Of a stretch of DNA of 12,736 bases, positions 117 through 12,736 are shown in pieces. A program made the translations under genes and the position numbers. Under the pieces are notes generated by a model that saw nothing but the letters and a program-made list of their open reading frames with translations, searched no databases and was not told the origin of the DNA. Location of the stretch: the IMG/VR virus record IMGVR_UViG_3300045988_046651. The stretch is one strand, 5' to 3'. The first letter of the stretch is position 1; each line of letters opens with the position of its first letter. The DNA comes from a virus.

Positions 117-145
117 TTTAAAAGAGCCATACATAATATTATAAT
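117..145 (+). promoter_or_regulatory. Putative inward-facing sigma-A-type promoter inside the left ITR (drives TP-DNAP)
   Basis: TTTAAA (117-122), 17-nt spacer, TATAAT (140-145). There is no other room for a promoter upstream of the first gene of either arm. It is followed by the hairpin AGGC-GAAA-GCCT (157-168). Confidence 0.45.
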
Positions 146-904: not shown

Positions 905-2902
905 ATGATCATTCGGGCAGATGATTTTGACCATGAATATATGAAGCTGACCGGCCTTCGGCGGATGCAGAAGAAGCAGCGCGGGAACCCCGGCACCCGC
1001 GCAAAGCGCAGATACCGGGACGAGGTGACGGCCTTTGATATTGAAACCTCCACGATCCCTGGAACGCAGCAGGCGGTCATGTACATATGGCAGTGGCAGA
1101 TCGGTGATTTTACTGTCATTGGCCGCACTTGGGATGAATTCCGGGATCTTTGCTACCGGCTTAAAGCACAGTGCAAAGAGGATCAGTATATAGTGGTGTA
1201 TGTGCATAATCTATCCTTTGAATTTCAATTTTTGGCCGGCATCTATGAATTTAAGCCGGAAGAAGTGTTCTGCATCGAAAGCAGGAAGATCCTTAAATGC
1301 GATATGTTCGGCTGCCTGGAATTCCGCTGCTCCTATTTGCACAGCAATATGTCACTGGATGAATTCACCCGCAAAATGGGAGTAGAACACGCAAAGCTGC
1401 ACGATTTCGACTACAATCAATTCAGAGGGCCTTGGACAGCTTTAACAGATGATGAGCTGCAATATTGCGTAAACGATGTAAAGGGCCTTGTTGAGGCCCT
1501 TAAAATCGAAATGAAGCACGATGGAGATAATCTATATTCCATCCCTCTGACTTCCACCGGTTATGTGCGCAGAGATGCGAAAGCAGTTCTGAAGGGCGTG
1601 AAGCATTTCATCGTGCAGGATATCCTGCCGGATTATGAAGTATTTGAGATGCTGCAGGAAGCATTCCGGGGTGGAAACACCCACGCAAACCGCTATTATG
1701 CTGGGCTGATTCTGGAGAATGTGAAAAGCGCGGATCGCTCCAGCAGTTACCCCGATGTGCAAGTAAATTGCAAATATCCCATGTCCCGGTGGTTCCGTTC
1801 CGGAAACATCACCACGGACCAATTATTTGACCTCATAGACCGCAGAGGGCGCGCGGTGGCAATGCGTGTCGCTTTATTCAATGTGCGCCTACACGATGAA
1901 TTTTGGGGCTCTCCGTACCTTTCTATAAGCAAGTGCAGGAATATTAAAAATCATGAGCCGGACAACGGCCGCATCCTATCCGCTGACTATCTGGAAACTA
2001 CCATTACAGATATAGACTTGAAGATCATTGCCGACGAATACGATTTCGACAGTATGACCATTATCGACAGCGCGCACAGCAGATACGGCTATTTACCGCG
2101 GAAATTTGTGGAGCTGGTCAACAAGTATTACCGGCTGAAAACAGAGTTGAAAGGCTCGGAGGATCTTTTCGATCAGCTGCTATACATGAAAAGTAAAAAC
2201 AAGCTCAATTCCCTGTATGGCATGAGCGCCCAAAACCCCATCAAACCGGAAACGCAGTTTAAGCAGGGCGAATTCAGCATCTTGGAGGAGGATTACAAAG
2301 AGAAGCTGGAAGCGCAGAACAAAAAAGCATTCTTCAATTACGCATGGGGCGTCTGGTGTACCGCCTGGGCGCGGCTGCGGCTTGAAGAGGGGATAAGGCT
2401 GGCCGGAAGCCGCTTTGTGTATGCCGACACAGATAGCGTGAAATACCTTGGGGAAATAGATTGGAGCCAGTATAACGCCATCCGAGAAGCGCAGAGCAAA
2501 GCCCATGGGGCTTATGCCATCGACAAAAAAGGAAAGGCCCATTACATGGGGGTATTTGAATATGAGGGCGAATATGCGAAATTCTCCACGCTGGGAGCCA
2601 AAAAATACTGCTCCGAGGATACAGCCGGCAATGTCCAGATCACCATTGCAGGCGTCAGCAAAAAAGCAGGAGCCAAGGAGCTGCAGCAGGCCGGGGGGAT
2701 CTCCAAGTTTAAGCCGGGGTTTATCTTCCGGGAAGGTGGCGGTCTTGATGCTGTTTACAATGATGTTCCGGAGATAAAGGAAGTTACGATAGACGGCCAC
2801 CGGCTGGAGATCACCCGCAATGTTTGTCTTGTTCCGGGCGAATACACATTGGGCCTTGCCGGCGACTATGAACGCCTGCTTGACCGGCTGGCGATAGAGT
2901 AA
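905..2902 (+). CDS. Protein-primed family-B DNA polymerase, 665 aa
   Basis: SD GAGGAGGG upstream. ExoI is FDIETS (D45 = nt 1037-1039), ExoII is HNLSFEF and ExoIII is YCVNDV. Motif A is DRSSSYPD, motif B is KNKLNSLYG, motif C is YADTDS (nt 2420-2437) and the KxY motif is GAKKY. The pattern matches phi29-type pPolB. Confidence 0.95.
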   Translation: MIIRADDFDHEYMKLTGLRRMQKKQRGNPGTRAKRRYRDEVTAFDIETSTIPGTQQAVMYIWQWQIGDFTVIGRTWDEFRDLCYRLKAQCKEDQYIVVYVHNLSFEFQFLAGIYEFKPEEVFCIESRKILKCDMFGCLEFRCSYLHSNMSLDEFTRKMGVEHAKLHDFDYNQFRGPWTALTDDELQYCVNDVKGLVEALKIEMKHDGDNLYSIPLTSTGYVRRDAKAVLKGVKHFIVQDILPDYEVFEMLQEAFRGGNTHANRYYAGLILENVKSADRSSSYPDVQVNCKYPMSRWFRSGNITTDQLFDLIDRRGRAVAMRVALFNVRLHDEFWGSPYLSISKCRNIKNHEPDNGRILSADYLETTITDIDLKIIADEYDFDSMTIIDSAHSRYGYLPRKFVELVNKYYRLKTELKGSEDLFDQLLYMKSKNKLNSLYGMSAQNPIKPETQFKQGEFSILEEDYKEKLEAQNKKAFFNYAWGVWCTAWARLRLEEGIRLAGSRFVYADTDSVKYLGEIDWSQYNAIREAQSKAHGAYAIDKKGKAHYMGVFEYEGEYAKFSTLGAKKYCSEDTAGNVQITIAGVSKKAGAKELQQAGGISKFKPGFIFREGGGLDAVYNDVPEIKEVTIDGHRLEITRNVCLVPGEYTLGLAGDYERLLDRLAIE

Positions 2903-3378: not shown

Positions 3379-4095
3379 TCACCCCAGGTTGATGATGTTC
3401 ATGTAAACGCTCTGCTCCGGAATGCTGGTGGCGTAGAATGTCACCTGGTTCTGCGCCTGCGCGGTCGCTCTGATCTGTGCAGCCACAGCAGCATCAAAGC
3501 TGTTAGGGCTGGGGGAGATCACAAGATTGGTATTTGCATTGACCTGGGCCACAGTCACGGTCTGCTGATAGCCTTCCCCGGAGACAGTCCAGCCGGCCAC
3601 AGTCAGCTGCACGCTGGATCCGGTCGATTTATTGGCTTTGGTCGCAAGCTGCTCCGCAGTGGCGAAATAGTCCGCATTGTGGCCATCCAGAGTGTCTGCG
3701 TCAATAGGGCCGGAATCCGCAGCTCCGGCGACAAAGACGGTCAGCAGGGTGTCAACCAGGATGCCCAGCACACTGGAGCCGATGATCCACGCACCTTCCG
3801 GCGGAGTGGTTCCGGCCGGGGTTAGCACGGAAACCTGGACACCGTCTACTGTCACGGTGTCCCCGGCTTTCCATTTGCCGGTGGCCTTAAAGGTGATAAC
3901 CTTATTACCCGGCAGCTGGCGGGTGAGGGCGTGAACGGTGCCGCTCACCACTTCGGTGGCGGTTCCAACTCCAAGCTCCTGCACCTGCTTCAAAGCGAGA
4001 TCCACACGCTGCATATTCACATTCTCAACAGACAGGGGATTAAAAAGGTCGCTGCCCTCATATTCAATGAGGTTGAAATTTGTGGTATTAGTCAT
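3379..4095 (-). CDS. Tail fibre-like protein, 238 aa
   Basis: AGGAGG SD. The N-terminus TNFNLIEYEGSDLFNP...VDLAL and the internal DADTLDGHNADYFAT are motifs I associate with phage tail-fibre proteins. Position is in the tail module. Confidence 0.65.
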   Translation of the reverse strand: MTNTTNFNLIEYEGSDLFNPLSVENVNMQRVDLALKQVQELGVGTATEVVSGTVHALTRQLPGNKVITFKATGKWKAGDTVTVDGVQVSVLTPAGTTPPEGAWIIGSSVLGILVDTLLTVFVAGAADSGPIDADTLDGHNADYFATAEQLATKANKSTGSSVQLTVAGWTVSGEGYQQTVTVAQVNANTNLVISPSPNSFDAAVAAQIRATAQAQNQVTFYATSIPEQSVYMNIINLG

Positions 4096-5500: not shown

Positions 5501-6395
5501 CAGCGCCACCTCCTATCATGGGGATTTCCCTCCAGCGTACCGAGATAGACAGCCCGAACATATCATTGACCCTCTTGCAAGCGTCCTGCAGATTTTCCAG
5601 CCACATGGCGCATTTTGAATAGGTTTCGATATTGTTCGCGTTGACCTCGTCCTGGATGAGCCGTTCGCGTTTGTCGGTGTTGGCATTGGGGATGCCAATT
5701 TCGGTATCGAACATGGCTTCGATTTTCCGAAGATCCGCCAGCAGGTTTGTAACGATATAATTACCGCCAACATTCTGCTCAAAGGCTTTCCAGGTTTCCT
5801 CCCCATCAGCTGTGTTTTTAAGCCGGGAATCAATGACAACAGCCGGCTCTCCGCTGGCGATCTGGTCGTACATCTTCTTGAGAGATTCCGCCAGAGCCTT
5901 TGTTTTTGCAGTAAACACATAGGAAAGCTTACTGTTCAGAAGATTGACAGAGACGGATTGGCTCGCCAACGCCATCTGCTCCGCATAGTGGCCGACCAGA
6001 TCCAGAATCCCGGAGAAGTCCGGCTGGAGCTTCAGCAGCTCGCACTGTGTGCCGATACGCGGCTCCAGAATGCCGGAAAGAAGGGGATTTGCTATCACTG
6101 CATGAGTAGGGGCGTAGAATACATCGTAGCCTTTTAGGCCGCATCCCTGCGGGATCACCCCGAATTTATCGGTATTGATAACCGCAACATATCCCCAGCA
6201 GTACAGCACATACAGAAAATAATCCTTGTTCCAGGTCTCCGGAAGATCCCATTCAAACACGCTCATGGCCTTTTGAAGCAGATACTTAGTAAAATATCTG
6301 CATAAGCCGCTATCCTTTACATGGACGGTCGAGGGCGTCACCTGGGAAGTTTCCGCGTTGATGTAGTTGTAATAATAGGGTGCGCCATTAATCAA
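5466..6395 (-). CDS. Portal / upper collar connector protein (phi29 gp10-like), 309 aa
   Basis: TTG start at 6393-6395, 7 nt after AGGAGG, overlapping the upstream gene by 8 nt. The segments VFEWDLPETW and IGIPNANTDKRERLIQDEVNANN resemble phi29 gp10 segments recalled from memory ([33 protein letters not shown]). The length equals that of gp10. Confidence 0.88.
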   Translation of the reverse strand: MINGAPYYYNYINAETSQVTPSTVHVKDSGLCRYFTKYLLQKAMSVFEWDLPETWNKDYFLYVLYCWGYVAVINTDKFGVIPQGCGLKGYDVFYAPTHAVIANPLLSGILEPRIGTQCELLKLQPDFSGILDLVGHYAEQMALASQSVSVNLLNSKLSYVFTAKTKALAESLKKMYDQIASGEPAVVIDSRLKNTADGEETWKAFEQNVGGNYIVTNLLADLRKIEAMFDTEIGIPNANTDKRERLIQDEVNANNIETYSKCAMWLENLQDACKRVNDMFGLSISVRWREIPMIGGGADGGNLEPAGAV

Positions 6396-9351: not shown

Positions 9352-10054
9352 TGATTTTGCCCTCCTTAATAATTACCGGATAGCCAATGGCGGACAACTC
9401 ATCGGTCATCTTCTGCGCGTTCTCTTTGGAGCGGAAAGCACCAACCTGGACGCGATATATAATATCGGTCTTTTCAGCCAGCTTTGCCGCTACTCTCGAT
9501 CTGAATTTGTCCATGTTTTCCCCGAAACCAAAGAAATAAGATTCTGGATCTCCGTGGTTTGATGCGTAGCCGGCCGCGGCCGCTTCCTTGTGGGAGGTGA
9601 TCTTGTCCACAGAAAAACCGTACTTGCGGCAAAGATCCGCGACAAGCTCCACCAGATAAGCATAACCGGTATGGAAATACTGCGAATCTGTCATATCGCT
9701 TTCGCAGAATTCAATCTGGATGTATGCCGTAGGCGGATAGTTATAGGATCCTTTCTTTCCGGCTCCACAGCCCCAACAGGCGATATTAAGAGGAAGCACT
9801 TCGCAAGCCGCCATATGGCCCGCTTTATCCAGCCCAACAAAAATATGGGGGCTTTTCTTGATTCCGGGTTGGTTCCAGTGATTCCCATACTTGTTTTCAC
9901 CAAGGAGATCCGGAGCATCTACATAGCGCCGCAAATTGGGATTTGCTGCCCCGGTGCTATGTACCAATATCCCTGCCGGCTCGATGGGGATCTGATTTGC
10001 AGGAATGCTTAAAATTTCGTGCTTGGTGTGGTGGGTGATGTAGTAATTGATCAT
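9341..10054 (-). CDS. Endolysin: N-acetylmuramoyl-L-alanine amidase (LytA-type Amidase_2) with one C-terminal SPOR-like repeat, 237 aa
   Basis: ILVHSTGAANP, IQIEFCES and ITSHKEA...SNHGDPESYF parallel pneumococcal LytA (VHAHSTGNP, VELIESH, THEY...HSDHVDPYPY; recalled). The C-terminal YRVQVGAFRSKENAQKMTDELSAIGYPVIIKE matches one SPOR repeat of CwlC type. ATGA overlap with the holin. Confidence 0.88.
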   Translation of the reverse strand: MINYYITHHTKHEILSIPANQIPIEPAGILVHSTGAANPNLRRYVDAPDLLGENKYGNHWNQPGIKKSPHIFVGLDKAGHMAACEVLPLNIACWGCGAGKKGSYNYPPTAYIQIEFCESDMTDSQYFHTGYAYLVELVADLCRKYGFSVDKITSHKEAAAAGYASNHGDPESYFFGFGENMDKFRSRVAAKLAEKTDIIYRVQVGAFRSKENAQKMTDELSAIGYPVIIKEGKINEL

Positions 10055-10239
10055 TTCGGTTCCATCCTCTCCACCAGCTTCGTCATAACAACAGTATTGT
10101 TGTTAATGGCTTCCACGAATTTGTCAGATTCCAGCTTGTGATCTTCACGCTCTTTGTTAAGCATCCAGAACATTGCCACCAGGCACGCCACGGGAACTCC
10201 CAAATTGCTGACGATCTGAACGATTGCGGTTACATCCAT
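10051..10239 (-). CDS. Holin-like protein, BhlA/UviB-type architecture, 62 aa
   Basis: AGGAGG SD 7 nt upstream. Has a single N-terminal hydrophobic helix (VPVACLVAMFWML), then KERE and a charged helical tail, like BhlA. Directly upstream of the endolysin and overlapping it. Confidence 0.72.
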   Translation of the reverse strand: MDVTAIVQIVSNLGVPVACLVAMFWMLNKEREDHKLESDKFVEAINNNTVVMTKLVERMEPK

Positions 10240-10263
10240 GAATACACCTCCTTAAATTTAAGA

Positions 10264-10342
10264 ATAGAGACCCCCATTCAGTCCGCTGCACGGCGGAATG
10301 GGCAGGCTTCCGGCCTTGTGCATAGCCCTTGGGGGTCTCTAT
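10264..10342 (-). ncRNA. 79-nt GC-rich structured RNA element (leader or small RNA) with three-way-junction potential
   Basis: A perfect 12-bp closing stem joins 10342-10331 (AUAGAGACCCCC) to 10275-10264 (GGGGGUCUCUAU). Inner helices are GGGC/GCCC (10328-10325 with 10303-10300), AGGC/GCCU (10316-10313 with 10307-10304, loop CGGAA) and CCGC/GCGG (10296-10293 with 10286-10283). It lies in the only sizeable intergenic gap of the right arm. Confidence 0.6.
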
Positions 10343-10346
10343 GTTC

Positions 10347-10374
10347 ATTATAACACGATGATTTTCTTTGTCAA
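10347..10374 (-). promoter_or_regulatory. Perfect-consensus sigma-A promoter for the lysis and structural operon
   Basis: On the - strand: TTGACA (10374-10369), 16-nt spacer ending TGT (extended -10 TGn), TATAAT (10352-10347). The -10 overlaps the ATPase stop codon. The predicted start is near 10340, at the base of the structured element. Confidence 0.7.
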
Positions 10375-11364
10375 ATATTCTTTGACAAGATAATCCTCGC
10401 AGTATAATTCCCCACTTAGATACTTCCGAAGGATCCAGCCATACTTAAGGCGAAAGCGCTTAATATCAATATCATCTCCTGTATAAGTTTCCGGGCTGCC
10501 GGATGTATGAAATGTGGCGTACAATGTTCCGTCGCTCTTGTGGGAATAAATGCAGACTTCACCAACCTTAACAATAGAAATATACTCCCGGAGTGGCTTT
10601 GATCGAATGTACGCTGCGTCATCCTCTCGGAAAGAATTATTTAATGCCATCTCATTAAATCGGCTGTCCTTTGCTGTGGCCTTGTATAACGCAGTATTTG
10701 CTTTCTGTGCGCTTATATGGCTGTCACTTAGAATATATATCCCTATTCCTCGATCTCGAAGCAGAGACATAGTTCTCCCTGTCTGCTGCATCCTCATGGC
10801 CCGGCTGACAAGCCCCAACTCCATAAAGATCGGGTTGCCAAGATCGTTGGCATTTGCCAGGCATAGCGTTTGTATAGGTTTATAGCCCTGCAATTCCCTG
10901 TTACGGTTCATTGTCTCATAGGCATTCAGAAAAGCTGCTCCCTCATTTTTGATTGGCCGCTCATGCCGTTCCGGGATGAATTCATCGAAAATCCACAGCT
11001 GCACATCTGAAGCATCAAAGCCGCGCAAATTGGACATTGTGGAAAGGGCCGAAGCATAGCCGATGGGATCTCCGCTATCATCCGCATAGAAACCAGTATT
11101 GTACTTGGTGATCTTCGAAGCGGTAATATCTACACCCAGATCCCGATTAATTGGCTTGAATGGGCTGAATTCGTTTTTTGTTACAATGTCTATCTGCGCC
11201 TGTGTGCGGCGCGTCAGCATGAATTTAATATGATCCTCGACCACAACTTTCAGCGCTCCATAGGTCTTGCCGGTTCCGCGTCCGCCCACCAGGAAGTTGA
11301 ACGGTAGGCTCTGTGCAAGGATCCATCGAATATCAACATAGCCGTTAGGCAGATATAAGCCCAT
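10348..11364 (-). CDS. DNA packaging (encapsidation) ATPase, phi29 gp16-type, 338 aa
   Basis: Walker A is GGRGTGKT (nt 11263-11286) and Walker B-like is LWIFDEF. Size is close to gp16. TAATG overlap with the upstream methyltransferase. Confidence 0.9.
   Translation of the reverse strand: MGLYLPNGYVDIRWILAQSLPFNFLVGGRGTGKTYGALKVVVEDHIKFMLTRRTQAQIDIVTKNEFSPFKPINRDLGVDITASKITKYNTGFYADDSGDPIGYASALSTMSNLRGFDASDVQLWIFDEFIPERHERPIKNEGAAFLNAYETMNRNRELQGYKPIQTLCLANANDLGNPIFMELGLVSRAMRMQQTGRTMSLLRDRGIGIYILSDSHISAQKANTALYKATAKDSRFNEMALNNSFREDDAAYIRSKPLREYISIVKVGEVCIYSHKSDGTLYATFHTSGSPETYTGDDIDIKRFRLKYGWILRKYLSGELYCEDYLVKEYLTKKIIVL
10382..10408 (+). promoter_or_regulatory. Perfect-hexamer divergent (antisense) promoter
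   Basis: On the + strand: TTGACA (10382-10387), 15-nt spacer, TATAAT (10403-10408). It points antisense into the ATPase gene. Its -35 box is the inverted-repeat partner of the - strand -35 box. Confidence 0.45.
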
Positions 11365-12540: not shown

Positions 12541-12736
12541 CCTCCTGCCCAGTGGGCTGTGTTTGGTTAGGCTTTCGCCTGGAACACCCTTATTATAATA
12601 TTATGTATGGCTCTTTTAAAATACTTCTTTCGTTATATGCTTATAGCAGGTTTGATATATCAAATTTGTTATATGGTTATAGCTATTGCGTTATATTGGT
12701 AGCCGTGCGAGCGAGGCCGGAGGCCGAGCGAGCCTT
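12541..12736. repeat. Right inverted terminal repeat (ITR)
   Basis: Reverse complement of 1-196 (183 bp perfect, 2 mismatches in the inner 13 bp). Confidence 0.97.
12592..12620 (-). promoter_or_regulatory. Putative inward-facing promoter inside the right ITR (drives the early right-arm genes)
   Basis: Mirror copy of 117-145. The 54-aa ORF starts 7 nt after the SD that terminates the ITR, so its promoter must lie within the ITR. Confidence 0.45.

Follow-up and report, generated by a model that had tools for sequence, protein, structure and literature searches.

Two perfect consensus promoters lie back to back at the end of the DNA encapsidation ATPase gene of the virus IMGVR_UViG_3300045988_046651, which raises the question of whether they form a divergent early/late switch, as a first-pass annotation made from the sequence alone had proposed, or whether only one of them is functional, and what it transcribes. 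To answer this, we examined the whole 12,736-nucleotide stretch of DNA (the window) and compared the locus with its relatives in other phage genomes. The promoter on the minus strand is conserved in more than 100 related phage genomes, down to about 28% ATPase identity, and in most of them it stays a few nucleotides upstream of a previously undescribed structured RNA of about 75 nt, at the head of the late genes of a large group of gut phi29-like phages. The promoter-like site on the plus strand appears to be a lineage-specific coincidence.

Sequence features of the locus

Both promoter-like sites and the inverted repeat formed by their -35 hexamers were found exactly where the first-pass annotation had placed them, so that the observation itself is correct (Table 1). 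The pattern TTGACA-N15-19-TATAAT gave 2 matches in the window, compared to 0.01 +/- 0.10 in dinucleotide-shuffled sequences, and 0 of 200 shuffles reached 2. In a separate promoter scan restricted to spacers of 16-18 nt, the minus-strand site was the only 12/12 match in the window. The argument against chance is, however, weaker for the antisense site than it first appears. Given this particular protein tail and the codon usage of the phage, synonymous recoding yielded a perfect antisense promoter in 0.19% of trials and a match of at least 11/12 in 2.1%, which is rare, but about 60 times more likely than the uniform-composition estimate for a stretch of this length. In addition, the antisense -35 and the palindrome are one and the same coincidence, because the reverse complement of TTGACAA is TTGTCAA.

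Table 1 Positions of the features at the locus in the window. L numbers denote related loci; percentages of relatives refer to identity
Position	Strand	Feature	Observation
10348-11364	-	gp16-type DNA encapsidation ATPase; its last 9 codons carry the promoter	Pfam Podovirus_Gp16, E 3e-15; family profile matches phi29 gp16 (7JQQ_A), E 1.5e-19, over chain residues 10-289 of 332
10369-10374	-	-35 hexamer TTGACA of the conserved promoter, inside the Leu-Thr codons of the ATPase tail	TTGACA in 46 of 68 distinct upstream regions
10353-10355	-	TGT, extended -10 (TGn) element at the end of the 16-nt spacer	CGT or CGC in the 97% relatives, so not a conserved part of the promoter
10347-10352	-	-10 hexamer TATAAT	Overlaps the ATPase stop codon TAA (10350-10348), only the last T (10347) lying outside the ORF; perfect in 31 of 68 family members
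10339-10341	-	Predicted transcription start (inferred), 6-8 nt after the -10 box, at the first paired bases of P1	Gap from the -10 box to model position 1 is 5-9 nt in 55 of 68 distinct upstream regions and 3-8 nt in most of the independent set
10264-10342	-	Conserved structured RNA, about 75 nt after the predicted start	Covariance-model (R1) hit 10339-10267, 53.6 bits, E 1.6e-10; MFE -44.1 kcal/mol, z -2.7
10330-10342	-	P1 5' strand (AUAGAGACCCCCA), pairing with 10276-10264; equivalent to the phi29 pRNA A helix	10 of 10 modelled pairs covary; paired single-base indels on both arms in the 97% relatives shorten the helix by one pair or lengthen it by one
10325-10328	-	P2 5' strand (GGGC), pairing with 10303-10300 (GCCC); equivalent to the C helix	5 of 5 pairs covary across the family
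10317-10324	-	8-nt bulge on the 5' side only (UAUGCACA); equivalent to the CE bulge	UGCAC (10322-10318) is complementary to the P3 loop; AACACA/UGUGUU instead in the 85% relative
10304-10316	-	P2b hairpin AGGC-CGGAA-GCCU; equivalent to the E hairpin	100% paired, 4 of 4 pairs covary; CGGAA loop (10312-10308) columns invariant or nearly so
10283-10296	-	P3 hairpin CCGC-CGUGCA-GCGG; equivalent to the D hairpin	4 of 4 pairs covary; loop GUGCA (10291-10287) complementary to the bulge
10264-10276	-	P1 3' strand (UGGGGGUCUCUAU), followed by UCUUAAAUUU	Next 9 nt contain 5 U, a weak terminator-like tail
10247-10253	-	Shine-Dalgarno AAGGAGG of the first downstream gene	Start codon 24 nt after P1 in the window, 21-34 nt after P1 in most relatives
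10051-10239	-	62-aa small membrane protein (holin-like), first gene after the RNA	Weak PHROG holin hit, E 1.6e-4; homologous N-termini follow the RNA in nearly all relatives
10157-10348	-	63-aa ORF overlying the RNA, spurious	No family hits; frame broken by the P1 indels in the 97% relatives
10382-10408	+	Antisense promoter-like site: TTGACA (10382-10387), 15 nt, TATAAT (10403-10408)	12/12 only in the clade at least 97% identical
10368-10388	.	Inverted repeat TTGTCAAA (10368-10375)-N5-TTTGACAA (10381-10388); the right arm is the real -35 and the left arm the antisense '-35'	Arms match only 7 of 8 in the 97% relatives; left arm TTGTTAAA in L094, TTGTAAAA in L095 and L085, absent in L007
10550-10885	+	111-aa ORF, wholly inside the ATPase gene

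Conservation of the two promoters

Free drift of the hexamers at synonymous sites in relatives had been named in advance as an observation that would count against either promoter, and the two strands gave opposite outcomes when this was examined. On the minus strand, the Leu codon of the -35 is TTG in 38/38 ATPase tails compared to 15% background use, and the Thr codon is ACA in 34/38 compared to 41%, indicating synonymous-site constraint. TATAAT is kept in the 85% and 76% relatives even though the overlapping residues change from VL* to GI* to KI*. When the relatives were anchored on the RNA, the spacer was 16-18 nt and the gap to the RNA mostly 5-9 nt, while the -35 was located anywhere from -33 to +277 nt relative to the ATPase stop codon, and an independent set of loci behaved in the same way. 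The promoter belongs to the RNA and not to the ATPase gene. The match to a housekeeping-sigma (sigma-70/sigma-A) promoter in hexamers and spacer rests on sequence and conservation, as neither transcription starts nor holoenzyme-dependent initiation were measured here.

On the plus strand, by contrast, the hexamers decay through synonymous changes. In the 85% relative, GAA-TTA to GAG-CTA gives TATAGC, which loses the invariant final T, and GTC to GTA gives TTTACA, both changes being synonymous, and in the 76% relative the homologous hexamers are gone. Even within the close clade the antisense -35 is polymorphic (GTC, GTT, GTA). The hexamers match the consensus in full, but the 15-nt spacer lies outside the 16-18 nt seen in every conserved promoter of the family, which leaves it undecided whether the spacing is a functional one. 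Most of the family is near background once the free 5/6 antisense -35 match supplied by the reverse complement of TTGACAA is taken into account. Some observations point the other way: a sister clade (L048/49/53) has the same -35 offset, with an antisense TTGACA and a 4-5/6 -10 box (10-11 of 12 overall), and keeps the nucleotides CTTGTCAAA across a compensated frameshift (LVKE against SCQK), while L007 has an 11/12 antisense site at a different position. The arm spacing nevertheless differs between the two clades (7 against 6 nt between the 7-mers), and the palindrome is degenerate or absent outside these two clades, so that a conserved operator at the -35 box is not supported. Another clade has an obvious 18-bp palindrome in the promoter spacer, and repressor control of this promoter class is thus plausible. 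The 54-aa and 43-aa early proteins, which had been suggested as regulators, have no Pfam domain and no recognisable DNA-binding domain, and no repeated regulator boxes were noticed.

A conserved structured RNA

The first-pass annotation did not describe the RNA, which fills the 108-nt gap between the ATPase and holin-like genes and is 70-81 nt long across relatives. A covariance model of the RNA (R1) gave one hit per locus in 74 of 81 sources, always on the ATPase strand, and a hit in a further 34 of 64 loci on which it had not been trained. Four helices were recovered, and all 23 of 23 base pairs show double-sided, compensatory changes, with 89% of cells paired compared to 35-46% when the alignment was slid. 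The covariation score was 0.85, and 0.71 in the independent set, against at most 0.21 when slid; R-scape significance on a hand-curated alignment including the pseudoknot was not computed. G-U pairs are frequent on the transcribed strand and would be A-C mismatches on the other strand, indicating that the structure is RNA and making a DNA cruciform or origin unlikely. The bulge (7-8 nt across the family) and the P3 loop co-vary: matched bulge/loop pairs average 4.46 complementary nt against 3.09 +/- 0.11 when permuted (0 of 5000), with 29 distinct complementary cores. Whether this pairing forms within or between molecules is not distinguished by the sequence data, and it could be an intramolecular pseudoknot, as in many three-way-junction riboswitches. 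The same fold was recovered by minimum free energy alone in loci that the model missed.

The 3' end of the RNA was also examined for an intrinsic (Rho-independent) terminator. In the window, a 13-bp P1 is followed only by the weak tail given in Table 1, an observation that does not settle the matter for this genome, whereas the feature is clear in other clades. In L106, L133, and L159-161, P1 is followed by U6-U9, L088 and L097 have UUUUU close after P1, and in L079-84 a separate canonical hairpin plus UUUUAUU follows the RNA.

No curated RNA family matched the element. No tRNA or tmRNA was found, and searches of Rfam returned no credible hit in the window at E <= 1, none locally (10220-10400) at E <= 10, and none at gathering level in 20 relatives; weak hits to sn2429, MIR319, STnc390, and STnc460 are noise. 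The phi29 packaging RNA (pRNA) model, RF00044, did not detect the element in any of these searches, although it scored 145 bits on phi29 as the positive control. Conversely, model R1 does not reach phi29 pRNA, Amedibacillus phage AD70P3, or L087. Phages AD70P2 and AD70P3 of Amedibacillus sp. CSC70 carry the same promoter and RNA. A DNA similarity search against deposited phages found only one weak match. Genome bins gave only MAG bins, mostly Clostridia, as hosts, which we regard as suggestive only.

Discussion

The first-pass interpretation is thus partly supported: the minus-strand promoter is placed, as it had claimed, to transcribe the holin, endolysin, and structural genes, but the functional plus-strand partner and the divergent switch are not supported. 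We read the plus-strand site as a recent, lineage-specific by-product of this protein tail and of the near-palindromic TTGACAA, and not as part of a conserved switch. The comparative data establish that the minus-strand hexamers form a genuine housekeeping-sigma-type promoter, conserved throughout a large clade of 12-15-kb gut and rumen phi29-like phages, that its overlap with the ATPase codons is incidental, and that what is conserved is the promoter followed, 5-9 nt later, by an RNA with closing helix P1, helix P2, a bulge on the 5' side only, hairpin P2b capped by the CGGAA loop, and hairpin P3, whose loop is complementary to the bulge. What happens in the cell is inferred, as there are no experimental data of any kind and public metatranscriptomes were not mapped to these contigs. 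Transcription would start at about 10340 on the minus strand and make this RNA first, and would then either stop at P1 plus the U-rich tail or continue into the holin-like, endolysin, and structural genes. A perfect consensus promoter ahead of lysis genes implies some further control, by termination or repression, that we have not identified in this genome.

The function of the RNA is likewise an inference. The reading that we consider most likely is that it is a miniature counterpart of phi29 prohead RNA, in which P1 would correspond to the A helix that docks the gp16-type ATPase, the CGGAA loop to the E loop that grips the capsid, and the bulge-to-loop pairing to the CE/D contacts that link RNA subunits into a ring on the prohead. 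We place the explanation as a whole at a probability of about 0.6, the promoter being real and driving the RNA at about 0.9, the plus-strand site not being a conserved functional element at about 0.85, and the pRNA-like function, which is tentative, at about 0.45. Ring formation, oligomerisation, prohead binding, and a requirement in packaging were not assayed, and co-variation between the CGGAA loop and capsid E-loop residues was not analysed.

The main alternative, possible but less likely, is that the RNA is a cis-acting 5' leader of the late or lysis operon, such as a processive-antitermination element, a termination attenuator, or a translational control element for the holin-like gene, in which case the conserved promoter is simply the late-operon promoter. 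The most consistently conserved neighbor of the RNA is the first late gene and not the ATPase: in nearly every genome examined, the Shine-Dalgarno sequence and start codon of the same small membrane protein follow within 21-34 nt, and in MT835998 the ATPase lies on the other arm, yet the RNA still heads the late operon. In L079/80/82/84 the strong terminator lies between the RNA and the late genes, so that late expression needs read-through. In addition, about 60% of lineages have a 6-9-nt element just upstream of the Shine-Dalgarno sequence that is complementary to the P2b 5' strand plus the loop and co-varies with the stem (CCCGGA/UCCGGG, GCCGGA/UCCGGC, CUCGGA/UCCGAG). A three-way junction with arm-to-arm tertiary pairing is also the classic riboswitch architecture. 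However, the window clade and several others lack this element, the most conserved bases sit in an exposed apical loop and not in the junction, and L044 has an endolysin-like ORF directly after the RNA in place of the membrane protein. In several clades P1 itself plus a U-tract is the terminator, where correct folding releases the RNA and does not switch anything, and no Rfam riboswitch or leader family matches.

It is unlikely that the plus-strand site is a young, lineage-specific antisense promoter with some activity, for example damping ATPase, methyltransferase, or early transcripts late in infection without a shared operator. The perfect hexamers, the low chance probability, and the recurrence of near-consensus antisense sites at non-homologous positions in three clades, which could reflect promoter turnover, are consistent with this reading, but the 15-nt spacer, the loss through synonymous drift in the nearest relatives, and the free 5/6 match from the real promoter argue against it, and the initial selection of striking coincidences inflates apparent significance. 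We saw no plausible antisense gene downstream, the 111-aa ORF not having been tested further. The switch itself, in which one dimeric regulator on the palindrome would flip RNA polymerase between late and antisense transcription from sites 7 bp apart, is very unlikely given that the divergent pair is not conserved.

If the packaging reading holds, RNA-dependent DNA packaging is not a peculiarity of Bacillus phages but would be a general and probably ancestral feature of gp16-type motors, and this very large, mostly uncultured clade, to which the cultured Amedibacillus phages AD70P2 and AD70P3 belong, would define the minimal natural pRNA. A 2024 review of phi29-like phages still describes pRNA as unique to phi29 and related Bacillus phages (PMC11476376). 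That the Cp-1 genome paper (PMC190243) proposed a putative pRNA was not verified here. It would become testable whether all gp16-type motors need an RNA; an iterated covariance-model search of all IMG/VR and GenBank phi29-like genomes (Guelinviridae, Madridviridae, Rountreeviridae, actinophages) was not part of this work. The RNA would also give a minimal natural scaffold for structural work and RNA nanotechnology, and dozens of natural bulge/loop pairs for studying ring assembly. If it is instead a cis-acting leader, it would still be a new, very widespread phage RNA motif controlling lysis and late genes, absent from Rfam. For annotation, the intergenic gap and the spurious 63-aa ORF over it should be replaced by an ncRNA gene with its own promoter, and a perfect consensus promoter on the opposite strand should not be read as functional without comparative support.

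Comparison with phi29 and with leader RNAs

Like phi29 pRNA, the RNA is encoded by a protein-primed phage, which has, from Pfam and PHROG hits, a phi29-type major capsid protein, connector, and gp16 ATPase, the last aligning over both gp16 domains. In phi29, the gp16 C-terminal domain sits on the pRNA and the pRNA E-loop bases bind the capsid (PMC8104870), and the A1 promoter abuts the pRNA 5' end (PMC11476376), as the conserved promoter does here. The order and nesting of elements are the same as in the Rfam consensus, with a long closing helix from the 5' and 3' ends, a second helix, a bulge on the 5' side only, a capped hairpin, a short junction, and a second hairpin, and bulge and second hairpin loop are complementary and co-vary; a terminator follows in some clades. 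However, no sequence or model similarity was detectable in either direction, and the RNA is 70-81 nt compared to 120-174 nt, or about 60% of the length of the 120-nt functional pRNA and half or less of the full transcript. The closing helix is 10-14 bp without the CCA bulge, compared to about 25 bp with bulges for the A helix, the C-like helix is 5 bp against 9, the D-like helix is 4 bp against 6, and the CGGAA loop takes the place of the U-rich E loop. It lies at the head of the late operon, usually right after the ATPase gene and not at the left genome end, and often runs straight into an mRNA.

The phi29 A2b/A2c-A3 region (the p4/p6 switch) shares with this locus two oppositely oriented promoter-like sites close together at a boundary between early/middle and late genes. 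The late-side promoter here is a perfect consensus, whereas A3 lacks a -35 box and needs an activator (PMC11476376), and early and late genes here run in the same direction.

Processive-antitermination leaders (HK022 putL/putR, Bacillus EAR) are, like this RNA, structured RNAs of roughly 70-120 nt placed immediately after a strong promoter at the start of a long operon, and in one clade here a terminator follows directly. We are aware of no sequence or structural similarity to them, and a closing helix that is itself a terminator in several clades is the opposite of an antiterminator. Three-way-junction riboswitch aptamers with arm-to-arm tertiary pairing, such as the purine riboswitch, are also about 70 nt, with a closing P1, two hairpin arms joined by tertiary base pairs, and a 5'-UTR location upstream of a Shine-Dalgarno sequence. 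Conservation here is concentrated in an apical loop and not in the junction, the window has no separate expression platform, and the RNA is phage-encoded, upstream of lysis and structural genes.

Genome context and promoter motifs

The window is a complete 12,736-bp linear genome with 196-bp inverted terminal repeats that are 99% complementary, each of which carries an inward-facing TTTAAA-17-TATAAT, probably the early promoters of the two genome arms. It encodes a protein-primed family-B polymerase, a phi29-type major capsid protein, an upper-collar connector, a Dam methyltransferase, and a gp16-type encapsidation ATPase. A strong bidirectional terminator lies between the convergent polymerase gene and the end of the late operon, and a terminator-like hairpin lies between the 125-aa gene and the methyltransferase gene. 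The first-pass annotation had described two back-to-back promoters with perfect consensus hexamers at the end of the ATPase gene, together with an inverted repeat, and every one of these motifs was found where it had been placed. The pattern TTGACA-N15-19-TATAAT occurs twice in the window against 0.01 expected, and 0 of 200 shuffles reached two. The observation is confirmed.

Coordinates of features in the window and in related loci (L numbers denote loci collected from relatives)
Sequence	Feature	Position	Strand	Remark
Window	Inverted terminal repeats	1-196 and 12541-12736
Window	Promoter-like sites of the repeats	117-145	+	TTTAAA-17-TATAAT
Window	Promoter-like sites of the repeats	12620-12592	-	TTTAAA-17-TATAAT
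Window	Bidirectional terminator	2906-2931	both
Window	Terminator-like hairpin	11829-11810	-
Window	-35 box	10374-10369	-	TTGACA; 16-nt spacer ending TGT
Window	-10 box	10352-10347	-	TATAAT
Window	ATPase stop codon	10350-10348	-	Inside the -10 box
Window	-35 box	10382-10387	+	TTGACA; 15-nt spacer
Window	-10 box	10403-10408	+	TATAAT
Window	Inverted repeat arms	10368-10375 and 10381-10388		8 bp each
Window	Covariance-model hit	10339-10267	-	53.6 bits, E 1.6e-10
Window	P1	10342-10330 with 10276-10264	-	13 bp
Window	P2	10328-10325 with 10303-10300	-
Window	Bulge	10324-10317	-	5′ side only; contains UGCAC
Window	P2b	10316-10313 with 10307-10304	-	Loop CGGAA, 10312-10308
Window	P3	10296-10293 with 10286-10283	-	Loop 10292-10287; contains GUGCA
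Window	Palindrome CUUAAAUUUAAG	10262-10251	-	12 nt
Window	Shine-Dalgarno sequence	10253-10247	-	AAGGAGG
Window	Start codon of the next gene	10239	-
Window	Spurious ORF	10157-10348	-	63 aa
L085	Spurious ORF	2041-2130		29 aa
L082	Canonical terminator	3646-3676
L087	Promoter and G+C-rich element	1314-1430		64% ATPase identity
L096 (AD70P3)	Gap after the ATPase gene	5831-5953		123 nt
L165 (AD70P2)	Gap after the ATPase gene	1358-1480		123 nt

A predicted structured RNA downstream of the minus-strand promoter

The 108 nt between the ATPase stop and the next start codon are not a plain spacer, a point that the first-pass annotation missed. On the minus strand, 6-8 nt after the -10 box, the P1 helix closes a compact fold with a dG of -44 kcal/mol and a z of -2.7. 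In genomes 97% identical, one base is deleted from both arms of this helix in two relatives (12 bp) and one is added to both in another (14 bp), which argues for selection on pairing and against the 63-aa ORF that overlaps the region. This ORF and the 29-aa ORF in the gene call of a relative (L085) are spurious, as they have no family hits and, in the window, the frame is broken by the helix indels in close relatives.

ATPase homologues are abundant, with 2,855 proteins at E <= 1e-10. Loci were collected as 80 from viral contigs, at 97% down to 46% ATPase identity, as intermediate relatives at 85%, 64%, and 59% identity plus six more genomes of the window's clade, and as 64 loci from MAG-binned contigs of gut and rumen bacteria, mostly Clostridia. 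Almost all show the same unit at or after the ATPase stop, namely a TTGACA/TATAAT-like promoter followed by a 70-81-nt element whose closing stem differs in sequence but stays paired and which has a central CGGAA. In L087, a consensus promoter (TTGACA-16-TATAAT) just after the ATPase stop is followed by a G+C-rich structured element that lacks CGGAA and is not detected by the model described below, and which may be a divergent variant of the RNA. In the clade of L070, L072, L073, L074, L076, and L083, the ATPase gene ends in a plain hairpin terminator and faces convergent genes, and no RNA hit was found within 2.5 kb, so that the RNA may lie elsewhere on these contigs or be absent.

A covariance model with four nested helices was built from 53 distinct sequences and was found to give exactly one hit in 74 of 81 sources, always on the ATPase strand. 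Every modelled pair shows changes on both sides, in the training-derived alignment as well as in the independent loci.

Support for the four-helix model in the two sets of loci
Measure	Training-derived alignment	Independent genome-collection loci
Loci with a hit	74 of 81	34 of 64
Pairs with changes on both sides	23 of 23	23 of 23
Cells paired	89%	86%
Cells paired when partner is slid	35-46%	34-51%
Covariation score	0.85	0.71
Score when slid	at most 0.19	at most 0.21

Many more divergent loci that the model missed give the same fold by energy minimisation alone, as do the cultured Amedibacillus phages AD70P3 and AD70P2 (Guelinviridae). In these two phages, an unannotated gap after the packaging ATPase gene contains TTGACA-16-TATATT and an RNA of the same topology, with loop CCGAA in AD70P3 and UCGAA in AD70P2, making them a tractable system for experiments. 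G-U pairs are common on this strand, so the structure is RNA. The bulge (UGCAC) is complementary to the P3 loop (GUGCA), and this complementarity is maintained by 29 different sequence pairs across the family. Matched pairs average 4.46 nt against 3.09 +/- 0.11 when permuted, with 0 of 5000 permutations as high, and the pairing changes even between the window and its 85% relative, to AACACA/UGUGUU. No Rfam family matched the window or 20 relatives.

The minus-strand promoter travels with the RNA

When the 68 distinct upstream regions were anchored on the RNA, TTGACA was present in 46 and TATAAT in 31, the spacers were 16-18 nt only, and the gap to the first modelled base was 5-9 nt in 55. The -35 box lies anywhere from 33 nt before to 277 nt after the ATPase stop, and where extra ORFs are inserted (L064, L068, L075, L077, L078) the promoter travels with the RNA. 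The independent set behaves the same way. Where the -35 box is inside the ORF, the Leu codon is TTG in 38 of 38 distinct tails, against 15% use elsewhere in the same genes, and the Thr codon is ACA in 34 of 38, against 41%. TATAAT survives changes of the overlapping residues, from VL* to GI* to KI*. Free drift of the hexamers at synonymous sites in relatives had been set out in advance as evidence that would count against a functional promoter, and for this strand the opposite, conservation, was observed.

In some clades, this promoter class may be repressor-controlled. In L058, L060, L061, L069, and L071, and also in L115 and L121 of the independent set, a perfect 18-bp palindrome, TTGTTTCACGTGAAACAA, fills the space between a weakened -35 box (TTGATT) and TATAAT and looks like an operator, and L111 and L120 carry one-base variants of it.

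The plus-strand site is not conserved

The plus-strand site does not pass the same test, as it matches at 12 of 12 positions only in genomes at least 97% identical. In the relatives at 85% identity (L085/L086), the synonymous change GAA-TTA to GAG-CTA turns TATAAT into TATAGC, and the synonymous change GTC to GTA turns TTGACA into TTTACA, while in the relative at 76% identity (L007) several changes have removed the homologous hexamers. Within the close clade (L094, L095), the Val codon is GTC, GTT, or GTA, so the antisense -35 is polymorphic, whereas the sense TTGACA never varies in these genomes. The site is further weakened by its 15-nt spacer and by a built-in bias of the region, because the reverse complement of TTGACAA matches TTGACA at 5 of 6 positions. 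With the protein tail fixed, synonymous recoding gave 12/12 in 0.19% of trials and at least 11/12 in 2.1%.

Residual evidence in favor of the site comes from a sister clade (L048/49/53) that shares the -35 offset (-24 from the stop codon) and has an antisense TTGACA with a 4-5/6 -10 box. When compared with window 10360-10390, this clade keeps the nucleotides CTTGTCAAA although the reading frame differs (SCQK against LVKE), a compensated frameshift in the ATPase tail that hints at DNA-level constraint on the left arm of the palindrome. In addition, L007 has an 11/12 site at another position. Some lineage-specific antisense activity is therefore left as an unlikely possibility, and the full switch model, in which one regulator on the palindrome would choose between two functional promoters, as a very unlikely one.

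Genes and termination signals downstream of the RNA

In nearly every genome, a Shine-Dalgarno sequence and the start codon of the same small membrane protein, which is holin-like, follow 21-34 nt after P1, and endolysin and/or scaffold-like and capsid genes come next. In MT835998, the ATPase lies on the polymerase arm, and the RNA, with its own promoter, still heads the late operon on the other arm. The most consistently conserved order is thus promoter, then RNA, then late genes, and adjacency to the ATPase is common but not obligatory. In the window, the palindrome between the RNA and the start codon overlaps the first bases of the Shine-Dalgarno sequence and may form a small hairpin that modulates translation of the holin-like gene.

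Termination after the RNA varies between clades. The window has 5 U in the 9 nt after P1, a weak terminator-like tail, L106, L133, and L159-161 have U6-U9 directly after P1, and L088 and L097 have UUUUU close after it. In L079/80/82/84, a separate canonical intrinsic terminator (CAGGCGG-loop-CCGCCUG-UUUUAUU) follows directly after the RNA, and after it come the same small membrane protein, a scaffold-like protein, and the capsid protein, with no endolysin gene in between. The inference is that the RNA can be released as a discrete molecule, with the late genes expressed by read-through.

About 60% of family members, among them L009, L010, L012, L020, L028, L033, L041, L066, L067, L069, L077, and L097, have a 6-9-nt element, (A/U)UCCGGN, just upstream of the Shine-Dalgarno sequence of the first late gene, 7-11 nt after P1 or, in L079/80/82/84, after the separate terminator. 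It is complementary to the P2b 5′ strand plus CGGA of the loop and co-varies with the stem (9 nt in MT835998), but it is absent in the window clade. It could be a pseudoknot, a switch, or trans pairing of the released RNA with the late mRNA leader, and is unexplained.

Interpretation and comparison with phi29 packaging RNA

The existence and conservation of the minus-strand promoter and of the RNA fold are taken directly from the comparative data, whereas any function of the RNA is inferred. The minus-strand promoter is real and conserved, and is the promoter of a new structured RNA plus the late operon (probability about 0.9). The interpretation in the first-pass annotation thus holds in part, since its assignment of this promoter to the late genes is supported, while the plus-strand promoter and the palindrome switch are not supported by comparative evidence. 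The RNA is most likely a miniature counterpart of phi29 pRNA, although this assignment is tentative (about 0.45). The main rival, a less likely one, is a cis-acting leader, and the co-varying element before the Shine-Dalgarno sequence points to at least an additional cis role in the lineages that carry it. Also against membership, there is no model-level similarity in either direction, and the RNA is about half the size, has a short closing helix, lies at a different genomic position, and is tightly linked to the first late gene. No paper describing a pRNA outside the Bacillus phages, or any RNA motif at this position, was found in the literature searched, and a 2024 review calls pRNA unique to phi29 and related Bacillus phages (PMC11476376). 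The element is of considerable interest because it makes the generality of RNA-dependent packaging directly testable in a cultured system, the Amedibacillus phages.

The Rfam consensus for phi29 pRNA, checked on phi29 itself (145 bits), reads as a long closing helix, a second helix, a 9-nt bulge on the 5′ side only, a 4-bp hairpin with a 6-nt loop, a 3-nt junction, and a 6-bp hairpin with a 5-nt loop, which is the same order and nesting as P1, P2, bulge, P2b, and P3. In phi29, the bulge and second hairpin loop pair between subunits to form the ring (PMC5066667), and the A1 promoter abuts the pRNA 5′ end (PMC11476376). The ATPase family described here aligns with gp16 over both domains (7JQQ_A, E 1.5e-19).
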